Source of the DNA: Bacteroidia bacterium
GTDB taxonomy: Bacteria; Bacteroidota; Bacteroidia; NS11-12g; UBA9320
Length of the DNA stretch: 64,000 bases
NCBI GenBank assembly: GCA_017857855.1
Contig: JAFMCI010000005.1
Location: forward strand, 1,760 to 65,759
Reading direction: 5' to 3'
Made by a program: the position numbers and the translations under genes. Below are positions 1-19,450 of this stretch, one piece after another (positions within the stretch are counted from its first letter, which is position 1; every line of letters begins with the position of its first letter). The notes below the pieces were generated by a model, which saw nothing but the letters and a program-made list of their open reading frames with translations, ran no database searches and was not told where the DNA came from.

Positions 1-814
1 ATTTGCCATTGGCAGTGAGTCTAATGCGATTACACGCATCACAAAACGGGTTTGTTACCGTACTAATGATACCAAAACTGCCTTTGTAATTTTTAATTTT
101 ATAGTTTCTTGCCGTGAAGTTTTTCTCGTTGGGTATAGATTCAACACCCACCTCGGCATAGTGTACATTTACAGCCGTTAATACCTCATCAAAAGTCACC
201 AATTTTGACTTATCCCAATTGTTTCCATCAAAAGGCATAAATTCAATAAAACGCACATTAATCGGTTTATCACGTGTGTAATTTATGAAATCAATAATCT
301 CATCGTCATTAAAACCTTTCATAAGAACCACGTTTAGTTTTACCATAAAACCCTCCTGTATGAGCAGTTCTATATTGCTCATTGCTTTACTAAACTGATC
401 TCTTTTGGTTATGGCATCAAATTTTGTGGTATTAAGCGTGTCAAGGCTTACGTTAATGTCTTTTAAGCCACAAGATTTGAACGTTTCAATGTATCGGTCT
501 ACCAATATTGCATTGGTGGTAATGGATAGTTTAACGGGCAAAGTAGACAAAGATGTTAAAATCTCTGAAAAGTCTTTTCTTAGCAAAGGTTCTCCGCCGG
601 TTAGCCTTATTTTATCTACTCCGTTTTGAACAAATAATGCTGCAATATGGAAGACCTCATTAGCAGTCATAAGTTGAGATTGAGGAGATAACAATACGCC
701 ATTTTCTGGCATACAATACGTACATCTCAAGTTACATTTCTCGGTAAGTGAAATACGTAAATAATTATGCTCTCGCCCGAAGCTATCCGTTAAAGTAGCA
801 CTAACTTTTTTCAT
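1..814 (-). CDS. moaA: GTP 3',8-cyclase MoaA (radical SAM); 3' end lies beyond the left edge of the window
   Basis: Not in the ORF track because it runs off the edge. My translation from ATG (812-814, minus) gives MKKVSATLTDSFGREHNYLRISLTEKCNLRCTYCMPENG..., with the CxxxCxxC radical-SAM motif and GGEPLLRKD. ATGA overlap with the upstream gene's stop. Confidence 0.9.
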   Translation of the reverse strand, partial: MKKVSATLTDSFGREHNYLRISLTEKCNLRCTYCMPENGVLLSPQSQLMTANEVFHIAALFVQNGVDKIRLTGGEPLLRKDFSEILTSLSTLPVKLSITTNAILVDRYIETFKSCGLKDINVSLDTLNTTKFDAITKRDQFSKAMSNIELLIQEGFMVKLNVVLMKGFNDDEIIDFINYTRDKPINVRFIEFMPFDGNNWDKSKLVTFDEVLTAVNVHYAEVGVESIPNEKNFTARNYKIKNYKGSFGIISTVTNPFCDACNRIRLTANGK

Positions 815-1719
815 AAGTGACGTTCTCCATCTAACACCTTAAAACTGTGAAATAGCGCTGGGAAGACAGCATCTAAACTTTCGGCTACACCTTTGCTTGA
901 TCCTGGCAATGCTAACACCAAGCACCTTCCTATTGTTCCAACAACACTGCGCGATAACATAGCATACGGCATTCGTTCTTGACCATATCTGCGAAGCGTC
1001 TCTTCAGCGCCAATAAGACGTTTGTCTAACAATGGTATAATAGCCTCAGGAGTTACGTCGCGTGAAGACAAACCAGTGCCACCCGTAAGTATTATCACAT
1101 TATATGTTTGCACTAATGCAGTAACTGTGCTTTGTATCTTTTCAAAATCATCTGGTATTATCTGCACATCAGCTTGAGCTAAACCAAAATTAAGTATCCG
1201 TTCTTGTATGATTTGACCGGAAGTATCCTTTCCGTTACCTGCAGAAATGGAGTCAGAACAAACTACAATTCCGGCCTTTAGATGAGAAACATCGGCAGTA
1301 GGATAGGAGCTTTTACCCCCTTTTTTTTCGAGGAGTTTAATATGATGAATCTCAATGCCTTTATCTATTGGTTTTAGCATGTCATACATGTTTAAGGCAA
1401 CTATACTAGCGCCATGCATTGCTTCCACTTCTACACCTGTTTTGTAGATGGTTTTTATCGTTACGCTCACGGTTATCTCCAAGCCATCTATACTATATTC
1501 TATTCCCGTATATTCAATGGGCATAGGATGACAATCGGGTAAGAGTTCTGGTGTTTTTTTAACGCCAAGCAATCCAGCAGCTTTACTCATCGCGAATACA
1601 TCACCTTTAGGCACTGTGTTATTCTTAATCGCGGCAATAGTATCTGGCGTACTCACTTTTACCACAGCCTGTGCTGTAGCCACCCGAAGCGTGTTTGATT
1701 TGTGGGTTATGTCAATCAT
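811..1719 (-). CDS. moaC: Bifunctional molybdenum cofactor biosynthesis protein MoaC/MoaB
   Basis: The N-terminal half is MoaC-like (MIDITHKSNTLRVATAQA..., GVEVEAMHGASIVALNMYDM). The C-terminal half is MoaB/Mog-like (GIVVCSDSISAG, ILTGGTGLSSRDVTPEA). 4-nt overlaps with both neighbours. Confidence 0.85.
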   Translation of the reverse strand: MIDITHKSNTLRVATAQAVVKVSTPDTIAAIKNNTVPKGDVFAMSKAAGLLGVKKTPELLPDCHPMPIEYTGIEYSIDGLEITVSVTIKTIYKTGVEVEAMHGASIVALNMYDMLKPIDKGIEIHHIKLLEKKGGKSSYPTADVSHLKAGIVVCSDSISAGNGKDTSGQIIQERILNFGLAQADVQIIPDDFEKIQSTVTALVQTYNVIILTGGTGLSSRDVTPEAIIPLLDKRLIGAEETLRRYGQERMPYAMLSRSVVGTIGRCLVLALPGSSKGVAESLDAVFPALFHSFKVLDGERHL

Positions 1720-2153
1720 TTATTCTTCTTCCATTGGTAAGCTCCCGTTTCAAAGATTTCCTTGCCAAAGATAGGCACTTCATTTTTTATTCTATCTACA
1801 ATATATTCTGTAGCCTCATATACCTGAGGACGGTGTGCAGCAGATACAAAAACAAAAAAACAAATCTCGCCCACATTTACTTTACCCAAACTATGATAGA
1901 TGTGCATACAACTCAAATCAAATTTCTGGAACGTTTCTTCTCTAATGGTATACAAAATAGGATCAGCCATTTCTTCGTAACACGAAAATTCAATCGCACT
2001 TACAGTTTGTCCTTCAATTACATCTGCTCTCACCTGCCCTAAGAATATATTATGAGCACCAATGTCTGTTTTTGACTGATGCTTGGCAATGGCACTTGCT
2101 ATAAAATCTGGCGTAATCTCACCGTCTATGAATACCTTTTTTTTATCTGACAT
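1716..2153 (-). CDS. moaE: Molybdopterin synthase catalytic subunit MoaE
   Basis: 145 aa, a typical MoaE size, located between moeB and moaC. MoaE-like segments include HNIFLGQVR and FVSAAHR. Confidence 0.8.
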   Translation of the reverse strand: MSDKKKVFIDGEITPDFIASAIAKHQSKTDIGAHNIFLGQVRADVIEGQTVSAIEFSCYEEMADPILYTIREETFQKFDLSCMHIYHSLGKVNVGEICFFVFVSAAHRPQVYEATEYIVDRIKNEVPIFGKEIFETGAYQWKKNK

Positions 2154-2156
2154 AGC

Positions 2157-3197
2157 TTAGCTTATTTGACTATTTACTTGGTTGATTTGTGCTGCGGTTT
2201 CGTGAAGGCAATACACATTGGTGTAGCCATTTTCTATTAATATGTGGTGTGCATCAATGCTTCGATTACCACTCTGGCAAAATATATAAATTTCTTTATT
2301 TCTAGGTACTAAAGAGAGCTGAATAGTTAAAGAAGCCAACGGAATACGTAAATAGTTTTCTAAAGTGATGAACGGCAGTTCTTCGTCATTGCGTACATCT
2401 AAAAAGATGCCGATTTGTTTCGTTTGCCCAAGCCTTATTTTTTCTATGGGTGCATAGGTTAGTGCAAAAAATGATGGGGTAATAAAATCATGGTGTTGGG
2501 TATCGTAGGCAAAATGAGTCTGTCTATTGGTCAAAGTATCTACCAATAACATTTCATTGGTGAGCAATTGACCGATTTCTAGAAAATACTTTAACACTTC
2601 ATTAGCTTGATATAAACCCGCCATTGCCACCGTGGTTGGCATTACACCTGCTTCTGCACACGTTTGGCTATTTGTTGGCGACAATGGGTACAAACACCTG
2701 TATGAGCCTGATTGGTGGGCATTGAATACAGCTACTTGAAACTGAAAACGATACACGGAAGCATGCACAAATGGTTTATTCGTCAATATACTTGCATCAT
2801 TTATTAAATACCTAGCTTCTATGGCATCCGTAGCATCTACTATTAGGTCGTAATTTCTGAAGAGCGCTAAGGCATTTTGTCCAGTTAGAAATTCGGAATA
2901 GGATTTAAATTCAATAGCTGGAAATTGTATACTTAGCTTTTTACAGGCAGTTTCTGACTTAGACAATGCTATATCGCTTTCAGAAAACAAAACTTGTCTG
3001 TGTAAATTACACAAGCTCACTTCATCGCCATCTATAACACCTAGCGTTCCAATTCCTGATGAGGCTAGATAAGGAAGAACAGCGTTACCAAGTCCACCCG
3101 CACCTACGATTAATACGCGGGCTTGCGCTAATTTCTCTTGCCCGCTTTCTCCAACTTGGGGAAGTGTCATTTGTCGTGTATATCTCCTGTCTAACAT
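2157..3197 (-). CDS. moeB: Molybdopterin-synthase adenylyltransferase MoeB (ThiF/HesA family) with C-terminal rhodanese-like domain
   Basis: RYTRQMTLPQVGESGQEKL and the Rossmann loop VLIVGAGGLGNAVLPYL. The C-terminal ~100 aa carry a rhodanese-type Cys loop (IFCQSGNRS). Confidence 0.8.
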   Translation of the reverse strand: MLDRRYTRQMTLPQVGESGQEKLAQARVLIVGAGGLGNAVLPYLASSGIGTLGVIDGDEVSLCNLHRQVLFSESDIALSKSETACKKLSIQFPAIEFKSYSEFLTGQNALALFRNYDLIVDATDAIEARYLINDASILTNKPFVHASVYRFQFQVAVFNAHQSGSYRCLYPLSPTNSQTCAEAGVMPTTVAMAGLYQANEVLKYFLEIGQLLTNEMLLVDTLTNRQTHFAYDTQHHDFITPSFFALTYAPIEKIRLGQTKQIGIFLDVRNDEELPFITLENYLRIPLASLTIQLSLVPRNKEIYIFCQSGNRSIDAHHILIENGYTNVYCLHETAAQINQVNSQIS

Positions 3198-3431
3198 TTA
3201 TCCTCCGGCAAAGGGTGAGAGTAGGGCTACTTCATCATTTTCATTCAAATGAATATCTTTATCCATTGCTACCAACTTATGATTTATAGCGACATAAAAG
3301 TCATTGGATGTTAGATTATAGGTGCTTGATAAATAGGAAATTACTTCGTGCAACGTTTCTCCTTTTATCATCAGTTCTTCGGTAGATTTACCTGTTATAT
3401 CTGCTATTTCTCCAAAGTATGTAATTCTCAT
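3198..3431 (-). CDS. moaD: Molybdopterin synthase sulfur-carrier subunit MoaD
   Basis: 77 aa ending in the diglycine SPFAGG. Its stop directly abuts the moeB start. Confidence 0.75.
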   Translation of the reverse strand: MRITYFGEIADITGKSTEELMIKGETLHEVISYLSSTYNLTSNDFYVAINHKLVAMDKDIHLNENDEVALLSPFAGG

Positions 3432-3433
3432 TT

Positions 3434-4180
3434 TTATACTAAAAAAAGTTTGACCGTGGCTATTACCAATACTCCTGCAAGCAAATACTTAAGCGTGTTA
3501 ATGTTAAATTTTTGACTTCCATATAAAGCTCCTAAACTCCCACCTAACAAAGCAACAGGCATAAAATACCAGGCTTCCAAAGGTATTTGCTTGCCTTGAA
3601 TAATAAAGCCCGTTATTCCTGCAAGAGAATTGACAAAAATAAACAATGCAGAAACAGCAGCAGCTTGCTTCATGTTACCCCATCCAAGTAAGATAATAAT
3701 AGGACTTAATATAATTCCGCCTCCAATACCAATCATTCCAGAAAAGAGACCAATGGCTGATCCGATAATCAGTGATCCTGTGATACTAGATGGTACGATT
3801 TTGTTCTTTTCTGTGCCAAAAATATTGAGCATTCGTAGTATAGCGATGGCTAAAAAGAAACCTAATATTTTTTTATAAAGGCCGGCATCAATGGAAATAT
3901 ATCCGCCTAAAAATGCCATGGGGATGGACGTAATGGCGAAGGGATAAAATAGATTCCACTTAAAATGATTGTTCTTTTTAAAAAACCAAAAGGATACGCC
4001 TGAAACAAATACGTTGAGCAGCAATGCAGTTGGCTTCATACTAATTACGGGGAGCGAGAATAGTGCCATAAGTGCCAAATATCCGCTTGCGCCTCCATGA
4101 CCTACACTCGCGTATAAAAATGCCACTACGAGCAAAATACTCATGAACATAAACAAGATATCGAGCTTAAGTAGTTCCAC
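3434..4180 (-). CDS. TauE/SafE (DUF81) family sulfite/anion exporter-like membrane protein
   Basis: Very hydrophobic, about 8 TM segments, with two Gly-rich repeats (VGHGGASGY, IGIGGGIIL). The first codon at 4180 is GTG; in-frame ATGs at 4150 and 4144 are alternative starts. Confidence 0.7.
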   Translation of the reverse strand: MELLKLDILFMFMSILLVVAFLYASVGHGGASGYLALMALFSLPVISMKPTALLLNVFVSGVSFWFFKKNNHFKWNLFYPFAITSIPMAFLGGYISIDAGLYKKILGFFLAIAILRMLNIFGTEKNKIVPSSITGSLIIGSAIGLFSGMIGIGGGIILSPIIILLGWGNMKQAAAVSALFIFVNSLAGITGFIIQGKQIPLEAWYFMPVALLGGSLGALYGSQKFNINTLKYLLAGVLVIATVKLFLV

Positions 4181-4181
4181 T

Positions 4182-5351
4182 TTACAATTTTAAGTAGGTG
4201 ATTTTTTCTCCTTTTTTAATGAATGTTACGTGTGAAGGAATCACCAAAATCGCATTACACACTGCAAATGATTTTAGCATAGATGATGCTTGCCCAGATA
4301 GGAGAGTTGCTTGTTCATTCTCTACCATTCCTTTTAGAAAAAGTGTTTTACCCGATTTATTGTCAATATCATCAGCAGCAAAAGCCTCAGCACTTGGTAA
4401 ATGGCAATCCCGGTGACCCAGTTGTGCTTTTAGTAATGGCAGAACATAGATATAAAAACAACTTAAACTTGATGCAGGGTTTCCGGGTAAGGCAAATACC
4501 TTCGTTTTATCTTTAACGCCAAACCACAAGGGTTTTCCTGGACGTTGATTTACTTTATAAAAAACTTCAGAAACACCATTAGCCTCCAAGGCTTGCTTAA
4601 CGAAGTCATAATCGCCTACAGAAATACCACCAGATATTAATACAACATCAGATTGAGCGATACATTTTTTTATAGCTTCAGTAGTTTGTGCTAAGTCATC
4701 TCCAACCATAGCCGTATTGACCTTGTTAATGCCCAGACGTTTCAATGCCATTTTGAGCGTAATGGAGTTGCTCTCATACACTTGACCATCTTCAAGTTGA
4801 TCTCCAGATTGCTGTAATTCATTACCTGTGATGAGTATGCTCACTTTAGGTCTTTTGTATACCTTAACTCTAGTAGCGCCAATACTTGCCAAAAATCCAA
4901 TTGCCGCTTCATTTAGCTCAACTCCTTTGGTGAGCGCAATTTCTCCAGCATTTATTTGCTCTCCAATAGGACGAACATTAGCGTACTTATTGGGTAAAAT
5001 TTCAATATTTAGTTGATTGCCTTGACGCTGAACATGCTCCTGCATTATTACGGTATCTGCAGAATCTGGCACGCGAGCACCTGTAAATATTCGCACGGCT
5101 TCACCTTGATTTAGCTGCAAATTTCTTGCGCTACCTGCTTGTATTTCGCCCACAACGGTGTAACAATCACTGTCAGAATGAGCAAAGGCGTATCCATCCA
5201 TAGATGACTGTTTAAATGGTGGCATATGGATAGCTGAAATCACATCTTCTGCTAAAACTAAACCCATTGTCTTTATGATCGGTTTAACTTTTATTGCATT
5301 AAACTGTGCGTGTTTTTCGATGAGTTGAAGTGCTTCTGAAACAGATATCAT
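4182..5351 (-). CDS. moeA: Molybdopterin molybdenumtransferase MoeA
   Basis: 389 aa with MoeA-like segments SMDGYAF, ISGGISVGDYDFVK and ALPGNPASS. Confidence 0.85.
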   Translation of the reverse strand: MISVSEALQLIEKHAQFNAIKVKPIIKTMGLVLAEDVISAIHMPPFKQSSMDGYAFAHSDSDCYTVVGEIQAGSARNLQLNQGEAVRIFTGARVPDSADTVIMQEHVQRQGNQLNIEILPNKYANVRPIGEQINAGEIALTKGVELNEAAIGFLASIGATRVKVYKRPKVSILITGNELQQSGDQLEDGQVYESNSITLKMALKRLGINKVNTAMVGDDLAQTTEAIKKCIAQSDVVLISGGISVGDYDFVKQALEANGVSEVFYKVNQRPGKPLWFGVKDKTKVFALPGNPASSLSCFYIYVLPLLKAQLGHRDCHLPSAEAFAADDIDNKSGKTLFLKGMVENEQATLLSGQASSMLKSFAVCNAILVIPSHVTFIKKGEKITYLKL

Positions 5352-5380
5352 GGTTATTTATTGAATAATAAAATAAGTAA

Positions 5381-6349
5381 CTAGCAGCAACCTCCGCCGT
5401 CATAATGAAAAGTAGATTCACTAATAAAAATATCGTCTCGGTTTAACGATGCTAATGCTCCAGCGGTTTTATCACATACGGCAAGAGGCTGATTTTTGAG
5501 AAGTATATGGCCTTTTTGGTCATCAAAAACTTCATCGTCACCAAAGTAAATGGCGGCTTTGCCTGTGAAGATACAAGGACCATCTGCAGGCATAGGATCT
5601 TTAATGGCAGCCACCTCTATAGATTCGATGTAAATTACTTCATCTGTTTGGTAGTTTTTAGGGTCCAATATTCTGTAAGGCTTTCTAGCTCTAATTTCAA
5701 TGGTTCCAAAACCAGCATCAGTTAGTTTTTTAACGTATTCATCAATGGGCAAACTCCCACTTAAGCATAAAGCCCTCAGTCTATCGTCATTTCTCAAGGT
5801 CTCGTTCATAGGCTGTTCGCATGTAGGATCGCTCATTACCAATCTTCCATGAGGTTTTAACACCCGATACATTTCGTGTATCGCTTTTTCTAGGTCATTC
5901 TCTTTAAAAATATTAAACAAGCAGTTTTGAGCGGCAACATCAATAGTATTGTCTTCTACAGGTAGGTTCAGAGCATCTCCTTTTCTGAGATCGACAAAAC
6001 TGCTCTTAAACCAATTGTTTTGCGTTTCAGCTTCTATAAAGTTTTTGCGAGAAGCTTCTAGCATTTCATCAACTACATCTATACCTATAACACCATTTTC
6101 TTGTCTTGAAAAATAGGCAAATTGTAAAAGCTCCATACCACCACCAGCACCAACATATAATATCTTTGGATTGTTGGTTAAATCTCTTGCATGAACGGTG
6201 CTACCGCATCCATAGTTCATTCGTTGCATAATCAGTGGAATCTTTAATCCGGGTAGTTCCCAGATTGGATTGGTGGTGCAACATAGACCCACATTAGGTG
6301 TTAATGCAGCGTCTTTATATAAGTCGTTTGTAGCATCTAGATAGCTCAT
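5381..6349 (-). CDS. arsM: ArsM-like As(III) S-adenosylmethionine methyltransferase (arsenosugar-cluster type)
   Basis: SAM motif I ILYVGAGGGMEL. Cys residues sit at ArsM-like positions (GLCCTT, NYGCGST, AQNCLFN, ALCLSGS). The protein ends in GGGCC. ATGA overlap with the upstream PNP gene. Confidence 0.65.
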   Translation of the reverse strand: MSYLDATNDLYKDAALTPNVGLCCTTNPIWELPGLKIPLIMQRMNYGCGSTVHARDLTNNPKILYVGAGGGMELLQFAYFSRQENGVIGIDVVDEMLEASRKNFIEAETQNNWFKSSFVDLRKGDALNLPVEDNTIDVAAQNCLFNIFKENDLEKAIHEMYRVLKPHGRLVMSDPTCEQPMNETLRNDDRLRALCLSGSLPIDEYVKKLTDAGFGTIEIRARKPYRILDPKNYQTDEVIYIESIEVAAIKDPMPADGPCIFTGKAAIYFGDDEVFDDQKGHILLKNQPLAVCDKTAGALASLNRDDIFISESTFHYDGGGCC

Positions 6350-7158
6350 AAATTTTTAATTAATTGGGTGAATAAGATTACTAACTGTGGCTCTGTTTTT
6401 TCTACGATTTCCATTATCTCTGGTATATTGATTGGGCTCAAATTATTTGGATCACACTCATCTGTAAGTACAGAGATGGCCGCAACATGTAGGCTCAGTT
6501 GTTTGGCTACAATAACCTCAGGGACCGTACTCATACCCACTGCATCTGCACCTAGTATTTTAAGCATTCGATATTCTGCTCTTGTTTCCAATTGAGGGCC
6601 AACCACACTAGCATACACGCCTTTATTCAGTTTAATGTTCTGCTTTTGAGATATGGTTTCCAAAAGACCCATAAGACGAAAGTCATATGGCTCACTCATG
6701 TCTACAAACCTATCTCCAAGTTTTTCAATACCTTTAAACGCAAGAGGAGATCCGCCTTGTAAGTTAAGGTGATCTTCGACCATCATTAACTCTCCTTTTT
6801 TGTAAGCCAGATTAATGGCCCCTGCGGCATTACTCAACAATAGTGTATGAATTCCTAAAGCGTGCAAAACTCTAATAGGAAAAGTTACTTCATCTAGGCT
6901 ATAACCCTCGTAAACGTGCAATCGGCCTTGCATTACAAGCACTTTTTTGCCTTCAATGTCACCAAAAATCAACTTACCCGCATGGTATTCCACCGTAGAG
7001 TTAGCAAAATGCGGAATCTCTTGATAGGAAATCTCTTTAAGAATATTTACTTGGTCTATAAATTTATTTAAGCCAGTACCCAAAACAATGCCTATTTCAG
7101 GTTTTTCAATGCCGTGTTGTTGTAAAAATTGGGTGGTTTGCTTTAGCTGTTCTAACAT
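6346..7158 (-). CDS. Purine-nucleoside phosphorylase (trimeric PNP family)
   Basis: 270 aa with IGIVLGTGLNKF, LVMQGRLHVYEGY, GPQLETRAEYRML and GADAVGMSTVPEV, typical of PNP/MTAP family enzymes. Confidence 0.85.
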   Translation of the reverse strand: MLEQLKQTTQFLQQHGIEKPEIGIVLGTGLNKFIDQVNILKEISYQEIPHFANSTVEYHAGKLIFGDIEGKKVLVMQGRLHVYEGYSLDEVTFPIRVLHALGIHTLLLSNAAGAINLAYKKGELMMVEDHLNLQGGSPLAFKGIEKLGDRFVDMSEPYDFRLMGLLETISQKQNIKLNKGVYASVVGPQLETRAEYRMLKILGADAVGMSTVPEVIVAKQLSLHVAAISVLTDECDPNNLSPINIPEIMEIVEKTEPQLVILFTQLIKNL

Positions 7159-7778
7159 ATTACAGGATCTTTAGTTCTTTTAAGGTATTCTTTGTACAAT
7201 TTACTTGCGATCAAATCTTCGAAAGTGTCTATGTCATTTAAGGTGTTTAATAAACCTACTTTTATGTGATGTTTTTTGATTTCTGCTAACGTTATTTCGA
7301 GTAGCTCTGGCTCACTCCAAGGCTTATGCTCGAAAATATGATTAGTCATGCTAGATAATCCAACTAAATAATAGCCTCCGTCTGCTGCAGGACCAAATAC
7401 CATATCCTTATTTTCTAAATGTAAAAATGCATGACGAATTAACTCATCTGAAATGTCTGGTAAATCAGATCCGATCAAAACAATCTTTTTATAGCCTTGG
7501 TCAAAACCCTTTTGGAAAGCATTTTTCATCCGTTCACCTATATCTTCTCCATGCTGTACCATTTTGACATCTGAAAGCCATCTTGAATCATCTACCACCT
7601 CGGAATAGTAAATAATTTTATCCATAGGCAAAGATGATGTGGCACTCTCTGTTAAATCTAAAAGACGGTTGTATATCAACAAAGACTCATGACCGCCAAT
7701 ACTCTTTGCCAATCGGGTTTTTACCTTGCCTAAGACACTATTTTTAACAAAAATGATAACTAATAAATCTTGATTCAT
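7152..7778 (-). CDS. DUF2064-type nucleotidyl/glycosyltransferase-like protein (TIGR04282-like, rSAM-associated 'transferase 1')
   Basis: LLVIIFVKNSVLGKVKTRL and GPAADGGYYLVG are DUF2064 hallmarks, recalled from memory. I place the start at ATG 7778, 13 nt after the arsS stop. The track start at 7826 would overlap arsS by 35 nt. Confidence 0.6.
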   Translation of the reverse strand: MNQDLLVIIFVKNSVLGKVKTRLAKSIGGHESLLIYNRLLDLTESATSSLPMDKIIYYSEVVDDSRWLSDVKMVQHGEDIGERMKNAFQKGFDQGYKKIVLIGSDLPDISDELIRHAFLHLENKDMVFGPAADGGYYLVGLSSMTNHIFEHKPWSEPELLEITLAEIKKHHIKVGLLNTLNDIDTFEDLIASKLYKEYLKRTKDPVIC

Positions 7779-7791
7779 ACTTCTATTTAAT

Positions 7792-8847
7792 TTAGATAAC
7801 GGATCCTTGACAACTACTGCCTGCACCTGCGGTGCAACCGTAGCAATGCTGTGAAATGACTATATCTCTATTCCATAATACTTCCTCGTTAAAATCATTA
7901 ATGTGTTTTACCTTACTATTTACTTTAAGTTCTAACATTTGGTTGAAATCGCAATCATAAAGCCATCCATCCCAGCTTACAGATAGGGTATTTGTACACA
8001 TTACATTTGCCAACGCAGCAGGATTGAAAGCGTCAACCAAGGTATACATGTAGTCCTCATAATTATCTGAAACCAGGAGATAATCTAAAAATCTACTGAT
8101 AGGTAAATTGGTTATTGCAAAGAGATTATGGAAGTTTATTTGGAAATCTGTAATGAGATTTCTTTTAAACTCAATTTCTAAAGCCGTTTGGTCTCCAGGC
8201 AAGAAAGCACCTGATGGGTTGTACACTAAGTCTAGCTTTAGAGAACTTCCTGGCATTCCGTAACCTATTTCATTTAATTCTTGAAGTGCTTCTATTGATT
8301 TCTGAAAAACACCGTCGCCGCGTTGTTTATCTGTTTTACCTTTGGTCCAATGGGGCATTGATGATACGACATGAATATTGTGTTCTTTAAAAAAAAGAGG
8401 TAAATCATGGTACTTTTTGTTGGCCTTTATGATGGTAAGATTAGAACGAACAATAAAATCAGCTATTCCGAGCTTGGACGCTTCCTCTACAAACCATCTA
8501 AAATTCGGATTCATTTCTGGTGCACCTCCCGTCAAATCTAACGTATGCACACCCGTCTTTTTTATAACGTCTAGACACTGTAGCATGGTGTCTTTACTCA
8601 TTATTTCTTTACGATCTGGGCCTGCATCTACATGACAATGCTCACAAACTTGATTACACATATAACCAAGGTTTAGCTGCAAAATTTCCAATTTATTAGC
8701 TCGCAAGGGATGATCTTGTCCGTTGCTAATTTTATGCTTAAACGTAGGCAAAGAGCCATCCTTAAAAATTCCATTTGATAAAATTTCAAGTTGCTTCTGC
8801 GGCTTTGATAAGTGGTCTTCTCTAAGGTGCAACGACTTTTTAATCAT
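7792..8847 (-). CDS. arsS: ArsS-type radical SAM / Cys-rich domain protein (arsenosugar biosynthesis radical SAM family)
   Basis: CxxxCxxC motif (CNQVCEHC), LDLTGGAPEMNP, and the C-terminal Cys-rich tail CYGCTAGAGSSCQG. 1-nt TAATG overlap with the upstream gene. Confidence 0.7.
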   Translation of the reverse strand: MIKKSLHLREDHLSKPQKQLEILSNGIFKDGSLPTFKHKISNGQDHPLRANKLEILQLNLGYMCNQVCEHCHVDAGPDRKEIMSKDTMLQCLDVIKKTGVHTLDLTGGAPEMNPNFRWFVEEASKLGIADFIVRSNLTIIKANKKYHDLPLFFKEHNIHVVSSMPHWTKGKTDKQRGDGVFQKSIEALQELNEIGYGMPGSSLKLDLVYNPSGAFLPGDQTALEIEFKRNLITDFQINFHNLFAITNLPISRFLDYLLVSDNYEDYMYTLVDAFNPAALANVMCTNTLSVSWDGWLYDCDFNQMLELKVNSKVKHINDFNEEVLWNRDIVISQHCYGCTAGAGSSCQGSVI

Positions 8848-9182
8848 TACATAGAAAGCTTTTCATATTTGTTCATCATTTGAACTCCGTGTACCAAAGT
8901 TGCTCCACTCTCAATAGCTGCGCCCACATGAACGGCTTCCATCATTTCTTCTTTAGTAATTCCTTTTTGCAAACCATCTTTGGTGTATGCATCAATGCAA
9001 TAAGGACATTTTACAACATGTGATACTGCAAGTGCGATGAGCGACTTTTCCCTGGCAGTTAATGCTCCTTCTTTGAAGACTGAGCCGTAGTACTCAAAAA
9101 ATTTTTCGCCGAGCTCTTCACTCCAATCTGTGATATTTTTAAACTTTCTGAGGTCTTCTGTATTGTAATAGGTTTTGGACAT
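8847..9182 (-). CDS. Carboxymuconolactone decarboxylase/AhpD-like peroxidase-like protein (rSAM-cluster associated)
   Basis: 111 aa with the AhpD-type CxxC motif (VKCPYCIDAY). First gene of the minus-strand unit. Confidence 0.65.
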   Translation of the reverse strand: MSKTYYNTEDLRKFKNITDWSEELGEKFFEYYGSVFKEGALTAREKSLIALAVSHVVKCPYCIDAYTKDGLQKGITKEEMMEAVHVGAAIESGATLVHGVQMMNKYEKLSM

Positions 9183-9468
9183 GATTTAATGTAAGAAACG
9201 AAATTAACTAATATTGTCTGACTGAATGCCATAAAGGTTACATAAGCGTTTATTGCGACATTTTCTTATGTTTTGCAACTAATTAAAATAGCTTATTAAG
9301 TATTGATAATCAGATGTTTGTAATGATTAAATTGCTTAATAAACAAGTTTTACAACTTTATGGCTGCGCTATATTTTCCTGATTTTTTGTGTACAAATCA
9401 AGCGAAATAAAAACGAGTTAATCGGAAAGAATTAAAAAAAAATGTCCAAGTTTGAAGATTAATAATTT

Positions 9469-10770
9469 ATGTCTGAAGAACACGTAATTATCATTGGGAA
9501 TGGCATTTCTGGAATTACCGTTGCTCGGCATATTCGAAAACTTTCTGATAAAAAAATTACCGTTATTTCTAATGAATCCAATTATTTCTTTTCAAGAACA
9601 GCTCTAATGTATATTTACATGGGGCACATGAAATTTGAAAATACCAAACCCTATGAAGATTGGTTTTGGGAAAAAAATAACATTGAACTTAAGTTAGGAT
9701 CAGTTCAATCTGTTGATGCCCTGTCTAAAACAGTTTGTTTGGGGAATGATGAATCGATATCTTATGATAAATTGATTATAGCGTCTGGAAGTAAACCCAT
9801 TAAAATAGGTTGGCCCGGTCAGGATTTAATCGGAGTGCAAGGGTTCTATCACTTAGAAGATTTACACGCTTTAGAAAAGAATGCACCTGATAACATAAAA
9901 TGTAAAAGGGCCGTAATAGTGGGAGGTGGGCTTATTGGTATTGAACTCGCGGAGATGTTACAGTCTCGACATATTCCTGTTACCTTATTAGTCAGAGAAA
10001 ATAGTTTTTGGAATACCACATTAACTGACGGCGAGAGTGCAATGCTTAACCGGCATATAACTGCGCAGGGTATTGACTTAAGGTTAGGCGTGAGCTTAAA
10101 AGAAATACACGGAGATAACCTTGGCAATGTTAAATCGGTAACCATTTTGGAAACAAAAGAGGAAATACAATGTAATCTAGTGGCCTTAACGATTGGAGTT
10201 ACTCCCAATGTTGATTTTTTAGCGGATTCTACTATTGCTATTAATAGAGGTGTATTGACTAACAGATATTTTGAAACCAGTGTAAAAGATATATACGCTA
10301 TTGGTGATTGTGCCGAGCAGCAGCTACCTATTGAAAACAGAAATACTATCGAAGCTACTTGGTACACTGGAAGAATAATGGGTCAAACATTAGCAAATAC
10401 TATTTGCGGAAACAAGACAGAATACAATCCTGGCCATTGGTTTAATTCGGCAAAATTTATGGATATAGAATATCAAACTTATGGTATAGTGAATGTCCAG
10501 CCTGCAGAAAATCACAGCCATTTTTATTGGAAACATGACGACGACACTATGTCTTTAACGTTTGAGTACAATAAAAATTCTGGTGAATTTCAAGGTATAA
10601 ATTCCTTAGGCATTCGACTGCGACACGAAGTAATAGATAGATGGCTCAATGAAAAACGAGATTTAGAGTATGTACTACATCATTTGAACAAGGCTAATTT
10701 TGATGCTGAATTTTCTCGAAAGTATGAGAAGGAAATTTTTAATCTTTATAAATCTAAAGTAGAACTATAA
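9469..10770 (+). CDS. NAD(P)/FAD-dependent pyridine-nucleotide-disulfide-family oxidoreductase
   Basis: Two Rossmann loops (VIIIGNGISGITVA, AVIVGGGLIGIELA) and the FAD motif YAIGDCA. Confidence 0.8.
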   Translation: MSEEHVIIIGNGISGITVARHIRKLSDKKITVISNESNYFFSRTALMYIYMGHMKFENTKPYEDWFWEKNNIELKLGSVQSVDALSKTVCLGNDESISYDKLIIASGSKPIKIGWPGQDLIGVQGFYHLEDLHALEKNAPDNIKCKRAVIVGGGLIGIELAEMLQSRHIPVTLLVRENSFWNTTLTDGESAMLNRHITAQGIDLRLGVSLKEIHGDNLGNVKSVTILETKEEIQCNLVALTIGVTPNVDFLADSTIAINRGVLTNRYFETSVKDIYAIGDCAEQQLPIENRNTIEATWYTGRIMGQTLANTICGNKTEYNPGHWFNSAKFMDIEYQTYGIVNVQPAENHSHFYWKHDDDTMSLTFEYNKNSGEFQGINSLGIRLRHEVIDRWLNEKRDLEYVLHHLNKANFDAEFSRKYEKEIFNLYKSKVEL

Positions 10771-12347
10771 TGGCGATGAAAATTCATGACAATATTAGTA
10801 TGTCGCTGGCCAAACCAGATGATTTAGTGCTTTCTTTAAAGTTAAAGTGGGCAACGGGTGCCGCTTCTATTGGCTTAGGTTTGCTCATTTTAGCACTTGC
10901 TAATATTCAGCTTCCACAATCGAATATTATTCTAATCATTTCAATGCTGCTTTTGTCTTTTGGCGTAATTCTTTTTAGTCATGCACTTTATCGAAATCAC
11001 ATAAGTAGCAATAAAAACAACGGAATATGGTATAATTCTATCACTTCTAGAGGTTTGCAAGGATGGATGTTAGGACTTGTACTTACTTCTTTTTACATTG
11101 TGTTGTATTTCTATCCGAATCTTCTTGGACTAGGGTTAAACGGACAAGAAAACACCGGTTTAATACATTTATTTGATGCATTGAGCTTAAACCTAAATGG
11201 TCATAATGCTACTCAATGGTTTGTATATGGTACTTTATATACTTTAGCCATATTGCTTTTTGGATATAAATTCATGTTGAAGTATCAAAAGAATAGGTAT
11301 CAGCAATTAAGAACGTTATCGGTTATGTTTTTTCAACTTGGCTTTGCTTTTTTGATTCCAGAACTTATGTCAAAATTAAATTCAGAATCGTCTCAACTGC
11401 CTTATTACGACCTTAAAAATATATGGCCTTTAAATTATGCCCAATTTGAACAAGGCAGGGTAGATGGATTTTTGAACGGCAGTTCTTTAGGAATGCTCCT
11501 TTTAGCCTTTAGTATATTATCTGTATTTGTAATATCTCCTATTTTAACATATAAATATGGCAAAAGATGGTATTGCTCTTGGGTTTGTGGCTGCGGAGGC
11601 TTGGCAGAAACAGCAGGAGATTCTTTTCGTCATTTGAGTAGCAAAACCCTTAAGTCATGGAAGGTGGAACGATGGCTTATTCACGTCGTTTTGGTCTTTG
11701 TTATACTAATGACAGTCGCAGTTATATCTACCTATTTAGAGACTGATGCTCTCCAATATTGGCTCACGAGAGACGCCTTTCTAGTTTTGATTGGTGCTTT
11801 ACTGACCGTAGTATTTAGTTTGACCATGATTTTTAAACGCAAAGAGTTAGCACAAGATGCACAATATGCAGCGATAGGCTTTTTTGTACTTATACTGTCG
11901 TTGTTAGGCTTTCATTTTTTTAGCATTGGAAGTGAACTGTTTTTTATAGATGCAGAGACACTTCGCAGTTCCTATGGTTTTTTTATCGGTTCGATTTTTT
12001 CCGGAGTTATAGGAGTTGGGATGTACCCCATTTTGGGCAGTAGAGTTTGGTGTAGATTTGGTTGTCCAATGGCAGCAGTACTTGGTTTTCAGCAACGTTT
12101 ATTTTCTAAGTTCAGAATAACGACCAACGGTGGGCAATGTATTTCTTGCGGGAATTGTTCCACTTTCTGCGAGATGGGAATAGATGTTAGGGCTTATGCA
12201 CAAAAAGGAGAAAATATTGTAAGATCGAGCTGTGTAGGTTGCGGTATATGCGCAGATGTATGTCCGAGAGGTGTTCTAAAGTTGGAAAATGTGTCCATAA
12301 TCGAGGGATTAAATTTTCCGAAAATCAGAAAAGAAACAAAAGAATAA
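10770..12347 (+). CDS. Membrane polyferredoxin (NapH/FixG-like 4Fe-4S binding protein)
   Basis: About 10 TM segments with Cys clusters CSWVCGCGG and WCRFGCP. Two C-terminal ferredoxin motifs, CISCGNCSTFC and CVGCGICADVCP. TAATG overlap with the upstream reductase. Confidence 0.75.
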   Translation: MAMKIHDNISMSLAKPDDLVLSLKLKWATGAASIGLGLLILALANIQLPQSNIILIISMLLLSFGVILFSHALYRNHISSNKNNGIWYNSITSRGLQGWMLGLVLTSFYIVLYFYPNLLGLGLNGQENTGLIHLFDALSLNLNGHNATQWFVYGTLYTLAILLFGYKFMLKYQKNRYQQLRTLSVMFFQLGFAFLIPELMSKLNSESSQLPYYDLKNIWPLNYAQFEQGRVDGFLNGSSLGMLLLAFSILSVFVISPILTYKYGKRWYCSWVCGCGGLAETAGDSFRHLSSKTLKSWKVERWLIHVVLVFVILMTVAVISTYLETDALQYWLTRDAFLVLIGALLTVVFSLTMIFKRKELAQDAQYAAIGFFVLILSLLGFHFFSIGSELFFIDAETLRSSYGFFIGSIFSGVIGVGMYPILGSRVWCRFGCPMAAVLGFQQRLFSKFRITTNGGQCISCGNCSTFCEMGIDVRAYAQKGENIVRSSCVGCGICADVCPRGVLKLENVSIIEGLNFPKIRKETKE

Positions 12348-12348
12348 A

Positions 12349-13038
12349 GTGACTTGTATAAAAGTAATAATACCCGCTTTTAATGAAGAAGGCTCTATTG
12401 CTAAGGTAATAGCGGAAATACCCACAGAAGTAGATGAAATTATTGTAGTGAATAACAACTCTACAGACACTACTAAAGAAGTGGCACAAAGAGCCGGTGC
12501 AACGGTTATAGACGAAGATCAAAAAGGATATGGCTACGCTTGTCTTAAAGGTATGGAATATCTTGCTTTGAGTAAAATTAAGCCTGACATTGTTGTTTTT
12601 TTGGATGGAGATTACAGCGACTATCCTGAGGAGTTAACACAAATTATAAGACCAATTGTAGACGAAGACATAGATTTTGTAGTAGGTGCTCGTGTTAAGA
12701 AATGGAGAGAAGATGGCTCCATGACGCCTCAACAAATTTTTGGGAATTGGCTAGCTACCTCCTTAATGAGATTATTTTTCAATGCTGACTTTTCTGATTT
12801 GGGTCCATTTAGAGCCATAAAATACGATAAGCTTCTAGCACTAGAAATGGAAGATAAAACCTATGGGTGGACTGTAGAAATGCAACTTAAGGTCATTAAG
12901 CGAAAGTTAACTTATGTAGAAATTCCTGTACACTATAAAAGTAGGATTGGCGTTTCCAAAGTATCCGGAACTATAGAAGGTAGTGTTATGGCGGGGATAA
13001 AAATATTAACCTGGATTTTTAAATATAGCTTTAAATGA
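12349..13038 (+). CDS. Small family-2 glycosyltransferase (possibly TIGR04283-like 'transferase 2')
   Basis: The GT2 N-terminus VIIPAFNEE preceded by TCIK forces a GTG start at 12349, 1 nt after the polyferredoxin stop. DxD-like FLDGDYSD. 229 aa. Confidence 0.7.
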   Translation: MTCIKVIIPAFNEEGSIAKVIAEIPTEVDEIIVVNNNSTDTTKEVAQRAGATVIDEDQKGYGYACLKGMEYLALSKIKPDIVVFLDGDYSDYPEELTQIIRPIVDEDIDFVVGARVKKWREDGSMTPQQIFGNWLATSLMRLFFNADFSDLGPFRAIKYDKLLALEMEDKTYGWTVEMQLKVIKRKLTYVEIPVHYKSRIGVSKVSGTIEGSVMAGIKILTWIFKYSFK

Positions 13039-14519
13039 CGGCGTTAATTTATAGTATCATCATCGTTTACACGCTAATCGCGGCAATACTTTTTTTGTAT
13101 GCATGTGCTCAATTAAACCTGCTTTTTAACTATCTTAAGAGTAAGAAAACTAAGCTCACTCATAGTAAGATAGATCTTAATACCCTAAAAAAGGGTTATC
13201 CGAGGGTTACCATCCAACTACCTGTGTATAATGAATTCTATGTAATGAAAGCGTTACTAGAAAATATTGGCAAAATAGATTACCCAAAAGATAGATTAGA
13301 GATTCAAGTGCTTGATGATTCTACAGACGAATCTTACGAGTTAACTAAGACTTACGTTAGTCAGCTAAAGGATAAAGGCTTTGATATTAAACACCTCCAT
13401 CGTACCATCAGAGAAGGCTTTAAAGCGGGGGCCTTAAAAGAAGGCTTATCCTCTGCAACAGGAGATTTTATTGCCATTTTTGATGCAGATTTTCTTCCAA
13501 AAAGTAACTGGCTTTTAGAAACCTTGCCTTACTTTTCTGCTGATAATATTGGTGTAATACAAACACGTTGGACTCATATTAATAGGGATTACTCGCTTCT
13601 GACCAAGGTTCAAGCATTCATGCTTGATGCACATTTTACCATTGAACAAGTGGGACGCAATTCCAAAAACCATTTTATTAATTTCAATGGAACTGCAGGT
13701 ATTTGGCGAAAATCATGCATACTTGACGCTGGAAATTGGAATGGAGACACCTTAACTGAAGATTTAGATTTGAGTTATAGAGCTCAACTCAAAAATTGGA
13801 AATTTATTTTTTTAGAAGACGTAGAAACGCTAGCAGAACTTCCTGTTGTTATCGCTGCGGCAAAATCACAGCAATTTAGATGGAATAAAGGAGCTGCAGA
13901 AAATTTTAGAAAAAATATAAAGCGCCTATATCAAAATAAAAATATCGCTGCAATTACCAAGATACATGGAACATTTCACCTCCTTAATAGTTCTATGTTC
14001 TTAGGCGTTTTCATAATTGCTCTCTTAAGTGTTCCGATGCTTTATATCAAAACGCAGTATCCCATACTACAAGGGTATTTCGTCGTAATGGGTTTCTTTG
14101 TGATTACAACACTCATATTTTTACTGTATTATTGGGTTATGTACAAAAAGGTTTATGGCAAAGGACTGGTTCATTTCATTCGGTTTATTGGCTTATTTCT
14201 GGCTTTTTTCTCTATTGCAGTAGGACTTTCATTGCACAATACATGGGCTGTGTTAGAGGGGCATTTGGGTAAAAAAAGTGATTTTATTCGTACCCCTAAA
14301 TTCAATCTAACGTCAGGGTTTAATAGCATACTAGAAAATAAATACCTAGCTAAAAACATCTCTGCAACAAGTGTAGCAGAGGGCATACTTATGCTCTACT
14401 TTTCTTTTGGTATTTACAGCGCTTTCAAACTGGGAGATTTCGGTTTTACTCTATTTCATCTGATGTTGGTGTTTGGGTTCGGATACTTATTTTTTCAGTC
14501 ATTGATGACCAAACGATAA
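13035..14519 (+). CDS. Processive membrane family-2 glycosyltransferase (cellulose-synthase-like / lipid glycosyltransferase-like)
   Basis: N-terminal TM segment, then LDDSTD, FDADF, TEDLDLSYR and QQFRWNKG (QxxRW), followed by about 4 C-terminal TM segments. ATGA overlap with the upstream GT2. Confidence 0.8.
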   Translation: MTALIYSIIIVYTLIAAILFLYACAQLNLLFNYLKSKKTKLTHSKIDLNTLKKGYPRVTIQLPVYNEFYVMKALLENIGKIDYPKDRLEIQVLDDSTDESYELTKTYVSQLKDKGFDIKHLHRTIREGFKAGALKEGLSSATGDFIAIFDADFLPKSNWLLETLPYFSADNIGVIQTRWTHINRDYSLLTKVQAFMLDAHFTIEQVGRNSKNHFINFNGTAGIWRKSCILDAGNWNGDTLTEDLDLSYRAQLKNWKFIFLEDVETLAELPVVIAAAKSQQFRWNKGAAENFRKNIKRLYQNKNIAAITKIHGTFHLLNSSMFLGVFIIALLSVPMLYIKTQYPILQGYFVVMGFFVITTLIFLLYYWVMYKKVYGKGLVHFIRFIGLFLAFFSIAVGLSLHNTWAVLEGHLGKKSDFIRTPKFNLTSGFNSILENKYLAKNISATSVAEGILMLYFSFGIYSAFKLGDFGFTLFHLMLVFGFGYLFFQSLMTKR

Positions 14520-14545
14520 AAGATATATAGAACTAAAGAAGTTGT

Positions 14546-15898: not shown

Positions 15899-15939
15899 GA
15901 TTTTTAAATTAGGATGTAATCCTTAGAACTGAAGTCAGG

Positions 15940-16815
15940 CTATCGCTGTCCTTTTTTAAATCCGTAGATACTTTGGCTAATAAAATCTTGTGGGAATTTA
16001 TCATCCCCTTCAAATCCAATTTCAATAGTACCGCTATCTTCAGGAACATAACTTGTTTTAAATAGGTAGTCCCATAGACTTAAACTAATACCATAGTTAA
16101 CTCCGAATTTTCCTTCAGGAAGCGTGTAAGCATGATGATATAAGTGCATTACAGGATTATTAACTAGAAACTTTAATGGTCCCCAGGTAATTTTAATATT
16201 AGCATGGTTTAAATGGCCAATGGTAATCGCTATAAAGTGTACAATATAAGCTTGTTCTGGTTCAAAACCTCCTAAAATCATTACCCCAAAAGTTTTAAGT
16301 GGTTTATAAAATACATTCTCCATCCAATGATATCGTAAATGAGCCGCAAAGCCCATTTCTTTAACACTATGATGCACCTTATGAAATTTCCATAAAAATG
16401 GATAACGGTGTAATAAGACATGTGTAAACCACTGCACAAAATCTAATATTATAAAGAATACAAGCAATTGAAGTCCTGCCGCCCATTTTGAAATATCCAT
16501 AATCGCTAGGCTTTTTGAACCGATATTAAACGCTTCAAACGTCACGCTCATTACTTGATAAAAGCCACTGATAATAATAGAAAAAATAAAGAAGTTGAAA
16601 AACATATAGAATGAATCCAACCAAAAATCTTTTCTAATTATCGCTTGATTTTTTCGCCACGGAAAAGATATTTCTAATAGCCAAACAGCTAGAGAAAGTA
16701 CAATTAGGCCCCAAAAGTAATTGGTGTAATAAGGTACTTCAAAAATGATTGATTTCCATGTCCAATCAACGGTTCCCAAAAATGCATTTTTAAATGCGTC
16801 TAAGTAGTTATTCAT
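15940..16815 (-). CDS. Fatty acid hydroxylase / sterol desaturase family di-iron membrane enzyme
   Basis: Histidine boxes HVLLH, HKVHH and HLYHH in a 4-TM context. Confidence 0.75.
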   Translation of the reverse strand: MNNYLDAFKNAFLGTVDWTWKSIIFEVPYYTNYFWGLIVLSLAVWLLEISFPWRKNQAIIRKDFWLDSFYMFFNFFIFSIIISGFYQVMSVTFEAFNIGSKSLAIMDISKWAAGLQLLVFFIILDFVQWFTHVLLHRYPFLWKFHKVHHSVKEMGFAAHLRYHWMENVFYKPLKTFGVMILGGFEPEQAYIVHFIAITIGHLNHANIKITWGPLKFLVNNPVMHLYHHAYTLPEGKFGVNYGISLSLWDYLFKTSYVPEDSGTIEIGFEGDDKFPQDFISQSIYGFKKGQR

Positions 16816-16817
16816 TT

Positions 16818-17756: not shown

Positions 17757-18183
17757 TATTTTCTAATATCATCCGTCTGCCTTTTGATGTAGGTGGATAG
17801 TTTTTAACCAGATAGTTAACAATTATTTCTTGATTGCCACCTAGATCCCATAATCCCTGTGTTTCCTGCATCCATTTGATGGTTTCATTCCATCGTTCTG
17901 CAGACATTCTATTTTGCGTGATAATTTTTGCTGAATGACAGCTGGTGCAATTGGTCACCACAGACATCATTCCTTCAGCTTCAAGCAAACCTGTTCTCAT
18001 ATGAATCCCATTTTCAATTAAGTCAGGATCCACAGGCGCTTCGACTATTGCAACTTCTGCGGGAGTGGTGAGGTCAATGATAAGGTAAGTTAACGACGCT
18101 GCATAAATTACAGATAGCAGAGCTGCCCATTTTATTAATCGCTTGATTTTAGATACACGTATAGAAAAATTAGTGGACGTCAT
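17731..18183 (-). CDS. Membrane-anchored monoheme cytochrome c subunit
   Basis: One N-terminal TM segment and a single CxxCH motif (CTSCH). The start codon directly abuts the stop of the molybdoenzyme gene. Confidence 0.6.
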   Translation of the reverse strand: MTSTNFSIRVSKIKRLIKWAALLSVIYAASLTYLIIDLTTPAEVAIVEAPVDPDLIENGIHMRTGLLEAEGMMSVVTNCTSCHSAKIITQNRMSAERWNETIKWMQETQGLWDLGGNQEIIVNYLVKNYPPTSKGRRMILENIEWYEMEL

Positions 18184-19449: not shown

Positions 19450-19450
19450 A

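Follow-up and report, generated by a model that had tools for sequence, protein, structure and literature searches.

The DNA analysed here, referred to as the window, is a stretch of 64,000 nucleotides of contig JAFMCI010000005.1 (positions 1,760 to 65,759 of the forward strand) of the Bacteroidia bacterium assembly GCA_017857855.1, a small genome of a marine member of the Bacteroidia (2.2 Mb, 98% complete). A preliminary description, made from the sequence alone, had placed five overlapping or near-abutting genes for an arsenosugar-type module at positions 5381-9182. We could confirm this layout, as five intact minus-strand open reading frames (ORFs) lie within 9182..5381 and neighbouring ORFs abut or overlap by 1, 35, 7, and 4 nt, respectively, in the order from the AhpD-like gene to arsM. 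The five genes are the following.

9182..8847, minus strand: AhpD/CMD-fold CxxC protein (TIGR04169, "arsenosugar biosynthesis-associated peroxidase-like protein"), 111 amino acids
8847..7792, minus strand: ArsS, a radical S-adenosylmethionine (SAM) protein with a Cys-rich C-terminal DUF3641 domain, 351 amino acids, all-Cys form without selenocysteine
7826..7152, minus strand: DUF2064/TIGR04282 protein with a CofC/MobA-like nucleotidyltransferase fold, 224 amino acids, likely true start at 7778
7158..6346, minus strand: trimeric-type purine nucleoside phosphorylase (PNP) of the arsenosugar-linked clade, 270 amino acids
6349..5381, minus strand: arsenosugar-type arsenite methyltransferase ArsM, 322 amino acids

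Proteins were assigned to families by profile matches scored against the curated NCBIfam cut-offs. The preliminary description had proposed searches with profile hidden Markov models at trusted cut-offs as a check on the module families, and in these searches all five proteins scored above the cut-offs: the AhpD-like protein reached 193.9 bits with TIGR04169 (cut-off 120), ArsS 432.8 bits with TIGR04167 (equivalog cut-off 300; model positions 2-303 of 303 covered), the DUF2064 protein 188.9 bits with TIGR04282 (cut-off 134), the PNP 328.2 bits with NF006054 (cut-off 218), and ArsM 573.3 bits with the arsenosugar ArsM model NF038099 (cut-off 400). The Pfam assignments were concordant (CMD [PF02627], Radical_SAM plus DUF3641, DUF2064/CofC, PNP_UDP_1, and Methyltransf). 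The module is a genuine operon of the arsenosugar type, which is common and for the most part already annotated. Four of the five families of the NCBIfam "arsenosugar biosynthesis" set (TIGR04167, NF038099, TIGR04169, TIGR04282, and TIGR04283) are present above their cut-offs, the missing one being TIGR04283. The PNP stands outside this named set and matches the generic model NF006054. In marine Flavobacteriaceae, too, these genes are frequent and carry annotations, except that the PNP bears no arsenosugar label.

The two enzymes that define the pathway carry the expected cysteines. The radical-SAM motif of ArsS, CNQVCEHC (CX3CX2C), contains C64, C68, and C71, which are invariant in an alignment of 14 sequences (A1), as are C335, C338, and C346 in the C-terminal part (PF12345, 180.8 bits), and the C-terminal tail, HCYGCTAGAGSSCQG, is all-Cys. 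The protein is 77-83% identical to very many homologues, many of which are named ArsS by NCBI. ArsM contains the cysteines of the motifs YGCG, QNCL, and ALCLSG, which we take to be equivalent to the As(III)-binding residues C72, C174, and C224 of CmArsM, and its identity to ArsM of related Bacteroidia loci ranges from 72 to 87% (77-87% in the Flavobacteriaceae-like ones). The AhpD-like protein carries a CPYC motif. It had been questioned whether arsenic or selenium is the substrate of such modules. This doubt goes back to a misreading of the "seleno" in the family names, which refers to members containing selenocysteine and not to the substrate, and the ArsS of the window is of the all-Cys form.

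Methylation of As(III) to dimethylarsenite is established for the ArsM family, and by homology we assume this first step for the ArsM of the window. ArsS was reported to adenosylate dimethylarsenite [DMAs(III)], yielding 5′-deoxy-5′-dimethylarsinoyl-adenosine (DDMAA) (PMC13598754), and the same conversion by ArsS is attributed to Cheng et al. (2021) in a passage of PMC12159101. The product of ArsM is the substrate used by arsS (bioRxiv 10.1101/2022.09.23.509062). That the ArsS of the window cleaves SAM and transfers the 5′-deoxyadenosyl group onto the arsenic of dimethylarsenite to form DDMAA is assumed by homology, the in vitro evidence coming from the cyanobacterial enzyme. The window thus holds the same two committed enzymes as Synechocystis sp. 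PCC 6803 (Xue et al., 2019; Cheng et al., 2021), in which arsM and arsS are adjacent and cotranscribed (bioRxiv 10.1101/2022.09.23.509062). In contrast to the Synechocystis pair, the operon of the window, whose host is a heterotrophic member of the Bacteroidia, additionally encodes the PNP, the DUF2064 protein, and the AhpD-like protein and faces a redox/glycosyltransferase operon; this comparison concerns the arsM-arsS pair. To our knowledge, ArsM and ArsS, the first two enzymes, are the only known enzymes of arsenosugar synthesis.

ArsS was found above its cut-off in 110 of 301 genomes representing an even sample of the phylum. For a census of the gene neighbourhoods, the 80 best named ArsS loci were used, all from Bacteroidia and including the genera Winogradskyella, Kordia, Tenacibaculum, Polaribacter, Aquimarina, Salegentibacter, Ferruginibacter, and Chryseolinea. 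The AhpD-like gene was present in 77 of these loci, where it adjoins ArsS, the DUF2064 gene in 61, the PNP gene in 42, and the ArsM gene in 34; among the 49 loci flanked by 6 kb or more on either side, 28 contained a PNP gene. The order found in the window, AhpD-ArsS-DUF2064-PNP-ArsM, occurred more often than any other (in 20 loci, and further in truncated form). The PNP keeps its place beside DUF2064 or ArsS in rearranged forms as well, namely ArsS-ArsM-DUF2064-PNP, ArsS-PNP-DUF2064, an ArsM-PNP-DUF2064 block in inverted orientation, and forms with the PNP upstream of AhpD or divergent from AhpD-ArsS. In three genomes, the DUF2064-PNP(-ArsM) block is located away from AhpD-ArsS, at a distance of 600 kb or on another contig (L006/L043, L008/L044, and L010/L045). 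The linkage of the PNP was hence kept through at least six arrangements, with DUF2064 as the constant partner, and it was found in Flavobacteriaceae as well as in Chitinophagales and Chryseolinea.

The linked PNPs also form a group of their own. In a maximum-likelihood tree of 106 PNPs with SH-aLRT support values, all 57 linked PNPs, which lie beside arsenosugar genes, fell into one clade of 63 rows (support 99), whereas the 27 PNPs that keep a canonical His residue formed a separate clade (support 96), none of whose members is linked. The PNP of the window lies inside a subclade of 48 rows (support 98), matches the signature of the linked clade (F/Y58, Q/N189, L190, and a hydrophobic residue at 245) with Y58, Q189, L190, and I245, and adjoins DUF2064. 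A PNP-anchored genome sample was used to avoid the bias of an ArsS-anchored one; in this sample, the clade member was located no more than 3 kb from ArsS, ArsM, or DUF2064 in 15 of the 20 genomes possessing one, compared to 0 of 27 His-type PNPs and 0 of 16 other PNPs. In one family (f3), all 11 ArsS-positive genomes had a clade PNP, and all seven ArsS-negative genomes having a PNP had the His type. Two genomes (G187 and G083) hold both types, the linked copy having Ile and the distant copy the canonical His. Since the linkage resists rearrangement, the linked PNPs share a clade, and two genomes contain both types, we consider the link to be meaningful, and judged from these comparisons it looks selected rather than accidental.

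As an observation apart from this, a genome without ArsS (locus L052, G111:C11, 3076-4729) encodes two tandem PNPs of the arsenosugar clade. In one of them, Asn has reappeared at the base-specificity site (N/L), whereas the other is of the D/L type.

The PNP passed the cut-off of the trimeric PNP model TIGR01697 with 281.5 bits (cut-off 197.1) but stayed below that of TIGR01700 for the inosine/guanosine-specific PNP-I (276.5 bits, cut-off 293.35), with Asp233 and Ile245 instead of Asn and His. Its best matches in the PDB were 4lna from Spirosoma (E=5.6e-84) and 4m1e from Planctomyces. Residues were related to the numbering of human PNP via alignment offsets (query 3-251 versus chain 8-263). 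The phosphate- and ribose-binding and catalytic motifs are intact (GTGL, RLHVYEGY, ETRAE, and VGMSTVPE), and fold and phosphate/ribose motifs are common to the trimeric PNPs, such as human and calf PNP, bacterial PunA, 4lna, and 4m1e. Compared to human PNP, the protein encoded in an arsenic operon has Tyr58 in place of G63, Leu190 in place of F200, Asp233 in place of N243, and Ile245 in place of H257. We take H257 to be the ligand of the 5′-OH group, at which position S-methyl-5′-thioadenosine phosphorylase (MTAP) has Val, N243 to be the base-specificity site, where Asp permits adenine, and G63 to be located next to the His residue of the phosphate loop. Seven positions cleanly separate the linked PNPs from the His clade. 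The linked proteins have F/Y rather than G at position 58, L rather than F at 190, and I rather than H at 245, and they also differ at 189 and 248, the last corresponding to human V260 by the alignment offsets. Near-specific to the linked clade are only F/Y58 and Q189. MTAP/MtnP, which belong to the same superfamily and act in the salvage of methionine and 5′-deoxyadenosine, phosphorolyse a 5′-substituted adenosine to a sugar-1-phosphate and have Asp at the base site and a hydrophobic residue in place of the 5′-OH-binding His. Unlike these enzymes, the PNP of the window belongs to the PunA-type family, remains below the equivalog cut-off of the MTAP model TIGR01694 (92.6 bits, cut-off 274.85), and has arsenic enzymes as partner genes.

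On this basis, we propose that the PNP phosphorolyses DDMAA to adenine and 5-deoxy-5-dimethylarsinoyl-alpha-D-ribose-1-phosphate, to which we assign a probability of roughly 0.55. In the following step, the DUF2064/TIGR04282 protein would join the arsenoribose-1-phosphate to a nucleoside monophosphate, giving a nucleoside diphosphate (NDP)-arsenoribose. An inverting glycosyltransferase of family 2 (GT2) might then pass the arsenoribosyl group to an acceptor and thereby form the beta-riboside of the natural arsenosugars; elsewhere this enzyme would be TIGR04283, in the genome of the window probably a DPM1-like GT2 of the divergent operon described below. We place less confidence in these two later steps than in the phosphorolysis. 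As a further, speculative component, the AhpD-like CxxC protein probably keeps the arsenic or the cysteines of ArsS in the reduced state. PNPs yield alpha-1-phosphates, nucleotidyl transfer retains the anomer, and GT2 enzymes invert it, and for this reason a beta-riboside as in the natural arsenosugars would be the expected end product. The route from a beta-nucleoside via an alpha-sugar-1-phosphate and an NDP-sugar to a beta-riboside, reasoned from established enzymology, therefore fits stereochemically. From the comparative sequence data, the PNP and the nucleotidyltransferase-like DUF2064 protein are good candidates for the steps after DDMAA. The membership of both proteins in the pathway, put forward in the preliminary description, is supported by the conserved linkage, the distinct PNP clade, and the altered ribose-5′ pocket; the mechanism of the PNP is what we infer from these features.

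For the DUF2064 protein, two roles had been considered, activation of the released sugar or its transfer. The longest ORF starts at the GTG at 7826 and overlaps arsS by 35 nt, whereas the ATG at 7778 leaves a gap of 13 nt. The latter is the likelier start, because DUF2064 homologues have about 200-210 amino acids. By sequence, the only PDB match was 3cgx, an uncharacterized DUF2064 protein (E=2.5e-31). A fold search with an AlphaFold model of the protein (pLDDT 94) returned, after 3cgx, the FbiD/CofC phosphoenolpyruvate and phospholactate guanylyltransferases and 3-phosphoglycerate guanylyltransferase, and among further structural neighbours were KdsB, IspD, GlmU, and sugar-1-phosphate nucleotidyltransferases. 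The earliest glycosyltransferase, ArnC, appeared at rank 47. The F420 phosphoester guanylyltransferases CofC/FbiD are the best characterized neighbours besides 3cgx (TM 0.66-0.74); their sequence matches to the DUF2064 protein are only weak (TIGR03552, 35.5 bits with a CofC cut-off of 105; PF01983), and the DUF2064 protein differs from them by its gene context and a presumed sugar-1-phosphate substrate. NCBIfam labels TIGR04282 as a glycosyltransferase. As the structural neighbours are nucleotidyltransferases, the model favours an activating role (NTP + X-phosphate to NDP-X) over this label and over the transfer role considered initially.

Two further observations concern this family. In locus L027 (G241:C2, 6990-8354), a single 454-amino-acid protein fuses a TIGR04283 GT2 domain (199.7 bits) to a TIGR04282 domain (203.8 bits), a Rosetta-stone arrangement that would link the nucleotidyltransferase-like step to the GT2 step. 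Many relatives (L005, L006, L010, L012, L013, and several named loci) possess, besides the PNP-adjacent copy, a second, divergent DUF2064 paralogue adjoining AhpD-ArsS, which is 27-38% identical to the DUF2064 protein of the window; the single such paralogue that was scanned scored 92 bits with TIGR04282, under the cut-off of 134. The window contains the PNP-adjacent type only.

Several observations weigh against phosphorolysis of DDMAA by the PNP as a dedicated step of arsenosugar synthesis, and the first group concerns the enzyme itself. Leu190 and a hydrophobic residue at position 245 recur in PNPs of other classes that are not linked, in some ArsS-negative genomes, and in the PDB entries 4lna and 4m1e, the former of which has the same D/Q-L/hydrophobic signature as the PNP of the window. 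For this reason, the pocket fits a 5′-substituted adenosine but is no invention of the arsenosugar pathway. An exchange of His for a hydrophobic residue at position 245 as an adaptation to arsenonucleosides is accordingly only partly tenable, as it separates the linked PNPs from the His clade but not from these other proteins. Asp233 was rejected as a signature of the module, because the residue is lineage-wide: of the 106 Bacteroidota PNPs whose alignment covers the site, 103 have Asp, whether linked or unlinked. The PNP is furthermore the sole PNP-family gene of the genome, the only other PF01048 member being a weak Udp/DeoD-like protein. A general housekeeping role is possible on this account, the same enzyme may also serve general nucleoside salvage in the streamlined genome, and the designation of the PNP as "dedicated" was overstated.

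The second group concerns the distribution of the genes. About half of the ArsS loci have no PNP nearby. Outside the Bacteroidia, none of five fetched PNPs from ArsS-positive genomes lies beside arsenosugar genes, and none of the ArsS/PNP coordinate pairs compared by eye is adjacent. Locus L051 (G103:C32, 3033-5656) comprises genes for an unknown protein of 235 amino acids, an NF045521 rhodanese, DUF2064, and a PNP of the clade type in a genome without an ArsS match, which shows that the submodule can exist without ArsS; the block could be a remnant or point to another source of substrate, and a gap in the assembly is a further possibility. Relatives also carry genes that the window lacks. In the 80 named loci, we found the NF045521 "rhodanese near glyco" gene, which sits between ArsS and DUF2064, in 31 cases, a gene for a 232-amino-acid protein without an NCBIfam match and with an apparently signal-peptide-like start in 30, and the TIGR04283 GT2 gene in 22 (exemplified in L097 by 11007-11558, 14855-15553, and 15546-16241). 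The rhodanese and the 232-amino-acid protein have no counterpart in the window, and in the whole genome no protein exceeded the TIGR04283 cut-off (best score 52.3 bits versus 182). The module can therefore not be called "complete", as had been done initially. In the literature that could be searched, no paper names an enzyme for the removal of adenine, for glycoside formation, or for other steps after DDMAA, none links PNP, DUF2064, TIGR04282, or Flavobacteria to arsenosugar synthesis, and none reports a test of the phosphorolysis proposed here.

The most probable alternative is salvage of by-products. The PNP would then act on 5′-deoxyadenosine formed by abortive radical-SAM cleavage, on methylthioadenosine, or on adenosine derived from the S-adenosylhomocysteine released by ArsM, and would be part of the operon because the module is SAM-hungry. 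The MTAP-like pocket formed by the hydrophobic residue 245 and Leu190 in so many unlinked PNPs and the status of the gene as the only one of its family agree with such a role, and so does the finding that no MtnN and no true MTAP reached its cut-off in any of 45 Bacteroidia genomes, whichever PNP type they had, the sole MTAP-like match in each genome being its PunA-type PNP, so that some enzyme must process these nucleosides. However, genomes with only the His type also lack MtnN and MTAP, and the hydrophobic type is thus not needed for this housekeeping; as the absence is the same with both PNP types, the idea that the hydrophobic type replaces a missing MTAP or MtnN does not discriminate. 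In addition, the tightest partner of the PNP is not ArsS but DUF2064, which would need a phosphorylated product, the two genomes with both types retain a separate His-type PNP, and it is established knowledge that ArsS, when turning over productively, passes the deoxyadenosyl group on and releases no 5′-deoxyadenosine. Taken together, we regard by-product salvage as possible but doubtful.

Improbable, in our view, is an inherited synteny without function, in which the PNP is the ordinary purine nucleoside phosphorylase of the lineage that happened to lie beside the cluster in an ancestor. In favour of this reading, most linked examples have the same gene order and come from Flavobacteriaceae, the counts are inflated by phylogenetic non-independence, and the PNP is missing from the vicinity of so many ArsS loci. 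Inherited synteny is difficult to reconcile with a linkage that outlasts at least six arrangements and a physical split from ArsS, with the differing arrangements in Chitinophagales and Chryseolinea (L161, L166, L168, and L170), and with the Flavobacterium-like genome G187, which has a linked-type copy in addition to the His-type PNP typical of the genus.

We consider it very improbable that the module acts on another metalloid (Se or Sb) or yields a non-sugar product in heterotrophic Bacteroidia, the arsenosugar label having been carried over from cyanobacteria. Such a function would be in line with the lack of a paper tying arsenosugars to Flavobacteria and of nearby efflux-type arsenic genes (not all ORFs of the window were scanned for arsR, arsB/acr3, and arsC), and the thiol proteins of the cluster, rhodanese and AhpD-like, would suit selenium chemistry, too. 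Yet ArsM scored 573 bits with an arsenosugar-specific model and kept the cysteines presumed to bind As(III), and ArsS retained all invariant cysteines. The occurrence of arsenosugar phospholipids of suspected bacterial origin in ocean particulate matter (preprint, 10.1101/2021.03.22.436501) also argues for arsenic.

With respect to other arsenic genes, searches of the whole genome revealed neither Acr3 nor a pI258-type ArsC (ArsB and ArsR were not searched for), and a Grx-type ArsC-like gene on another contig (C44:49144-49467) scored 99.8 bits, just under the cut-off of 106. The methylation/arsenosugar route may thus be the main arsenic handling of the genome. Least credible of all is a function of the PNP in arsenate reduction by arsenolysis of a nucleoside to ribose-1-arsenate, from which thiols such as the AhpD-like CxxC protein would generate As(III) for ArsM: PNP-dependent arsenate reduction has been described in vitro for mammalian PNP (reviewed in PMC12608789), the genome lacks Acr3 and a pI258-type ArsC, and one of the proteins of the operon is a thiol protein, but the same review calls the in vivo relevance unknown even in mammals, the Grx-type ArsC-like gene is present elsewhere in the genome, and neither the loss of the 5′-OH-binding His nor the tight coupling to DUF2064 would be explained.

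Phosphorolysis of DDMAA by the PNP is thus the reading that we prefer. Upstream of the AhpD-like gene, the following features were found, the proteins by family matches.

9183..9468: divergent intergenic region of 286 bp, AT-rich, between the module and the redox/glycosyltransferase operon
9469-10770, plus strand: FAD/NAD(P) pyridine-nucleotide-disulfide oxidoreductase
10770-12347, plus strand: membrane NapH-like 4Fe-4S protein
12349-13038, plus strand: DPM1/AglJ-like GT2 (GT2a; TIGR04283, 37 bits versus a cut-off of 182)
13035-14519, plus strand: cellulose-synthase-like GT2
14546-15898, plus strand: ALG3/GT-C-like membrane protein
15940..16815, minus strand: fatty-acid-hydroxylase-family membrane protein (PF04116; weak OlsE-like match)

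The 286-bp intergenic region presumably carries the promoters of both operons. A sigma-70 promoter scan gave nothing above the shuffle background, the consensus being a poor model for Bacteroidota, and no Rfam match was present in window positions 1-20000. In relatives, the FAD/NAD(P) oxidoreductase gene was found beside the arsenosugar genes in 14 and the NapH-like gene in 11 of the 80 named loci, and also in L007, L009, L011, and L038, and the three glycosyltransferase-like genes are recurrent neighbours of ArsS clusters. The coordinates given for a "complete" module hence leave out a conserved divergent operon at 9469-15898. In 16 of the 80 named loci, the gene after ArsM or PNP encodes a homologue of the fatty-acid hydroxylase (48-54% identical), and a homologue with 30-34% identity occurs in two more. 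On the other side of the module, 29 nt past arsM, a minus-strand set of molybdenum cofactor genes occupies positions 2-5351 (MoeA, TauE/SafE permease, MoaD, MoeB-rhodanese, MoaE, MoaC/MoaB, and MoaA, the last cut by the end of the window), and a terminator scan between arsM and moeA revealed none that was convincing. The molybdenum cofactor genes were rejected as part of the module and their adjacency to arsM is taken as local, because other genes follow arsM in relatives.

The news at this locus itself is modest, as the cluster is common and for the most part annotated, and the locus holds a reduced copy of it. Its significance lies in the PNP/DUF2064 pair, which provides two concrete, easily expressed candidates for the arsenosugar steps past DDMAA. 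Arsenosugars, together with arsenosugar lipids, rank among the major arsenic species of marine food webs. In an extension of the proposed route that we rate as unlikely, though less so than a synteny without function, the nucleotide-activated arsenoribose formed by PNP and DUF2064 would be loaded on polyprenyl phosphate by the DPM1-like GT2 and attached by the GT-C-like enzyme to an envelope lipid or glycan. If true, the product would be an arsenic-bearing component of the cell envelope, and bacteria would be a source of the arsenosugar lipids of the sea. The wide spread of the cluster in marine Flavobacteriaceae fits the field data pointing to bacteria as an overlooked source of the arsenosugar phospholipids of the ocean (10.1101/2021.03.22.436501).

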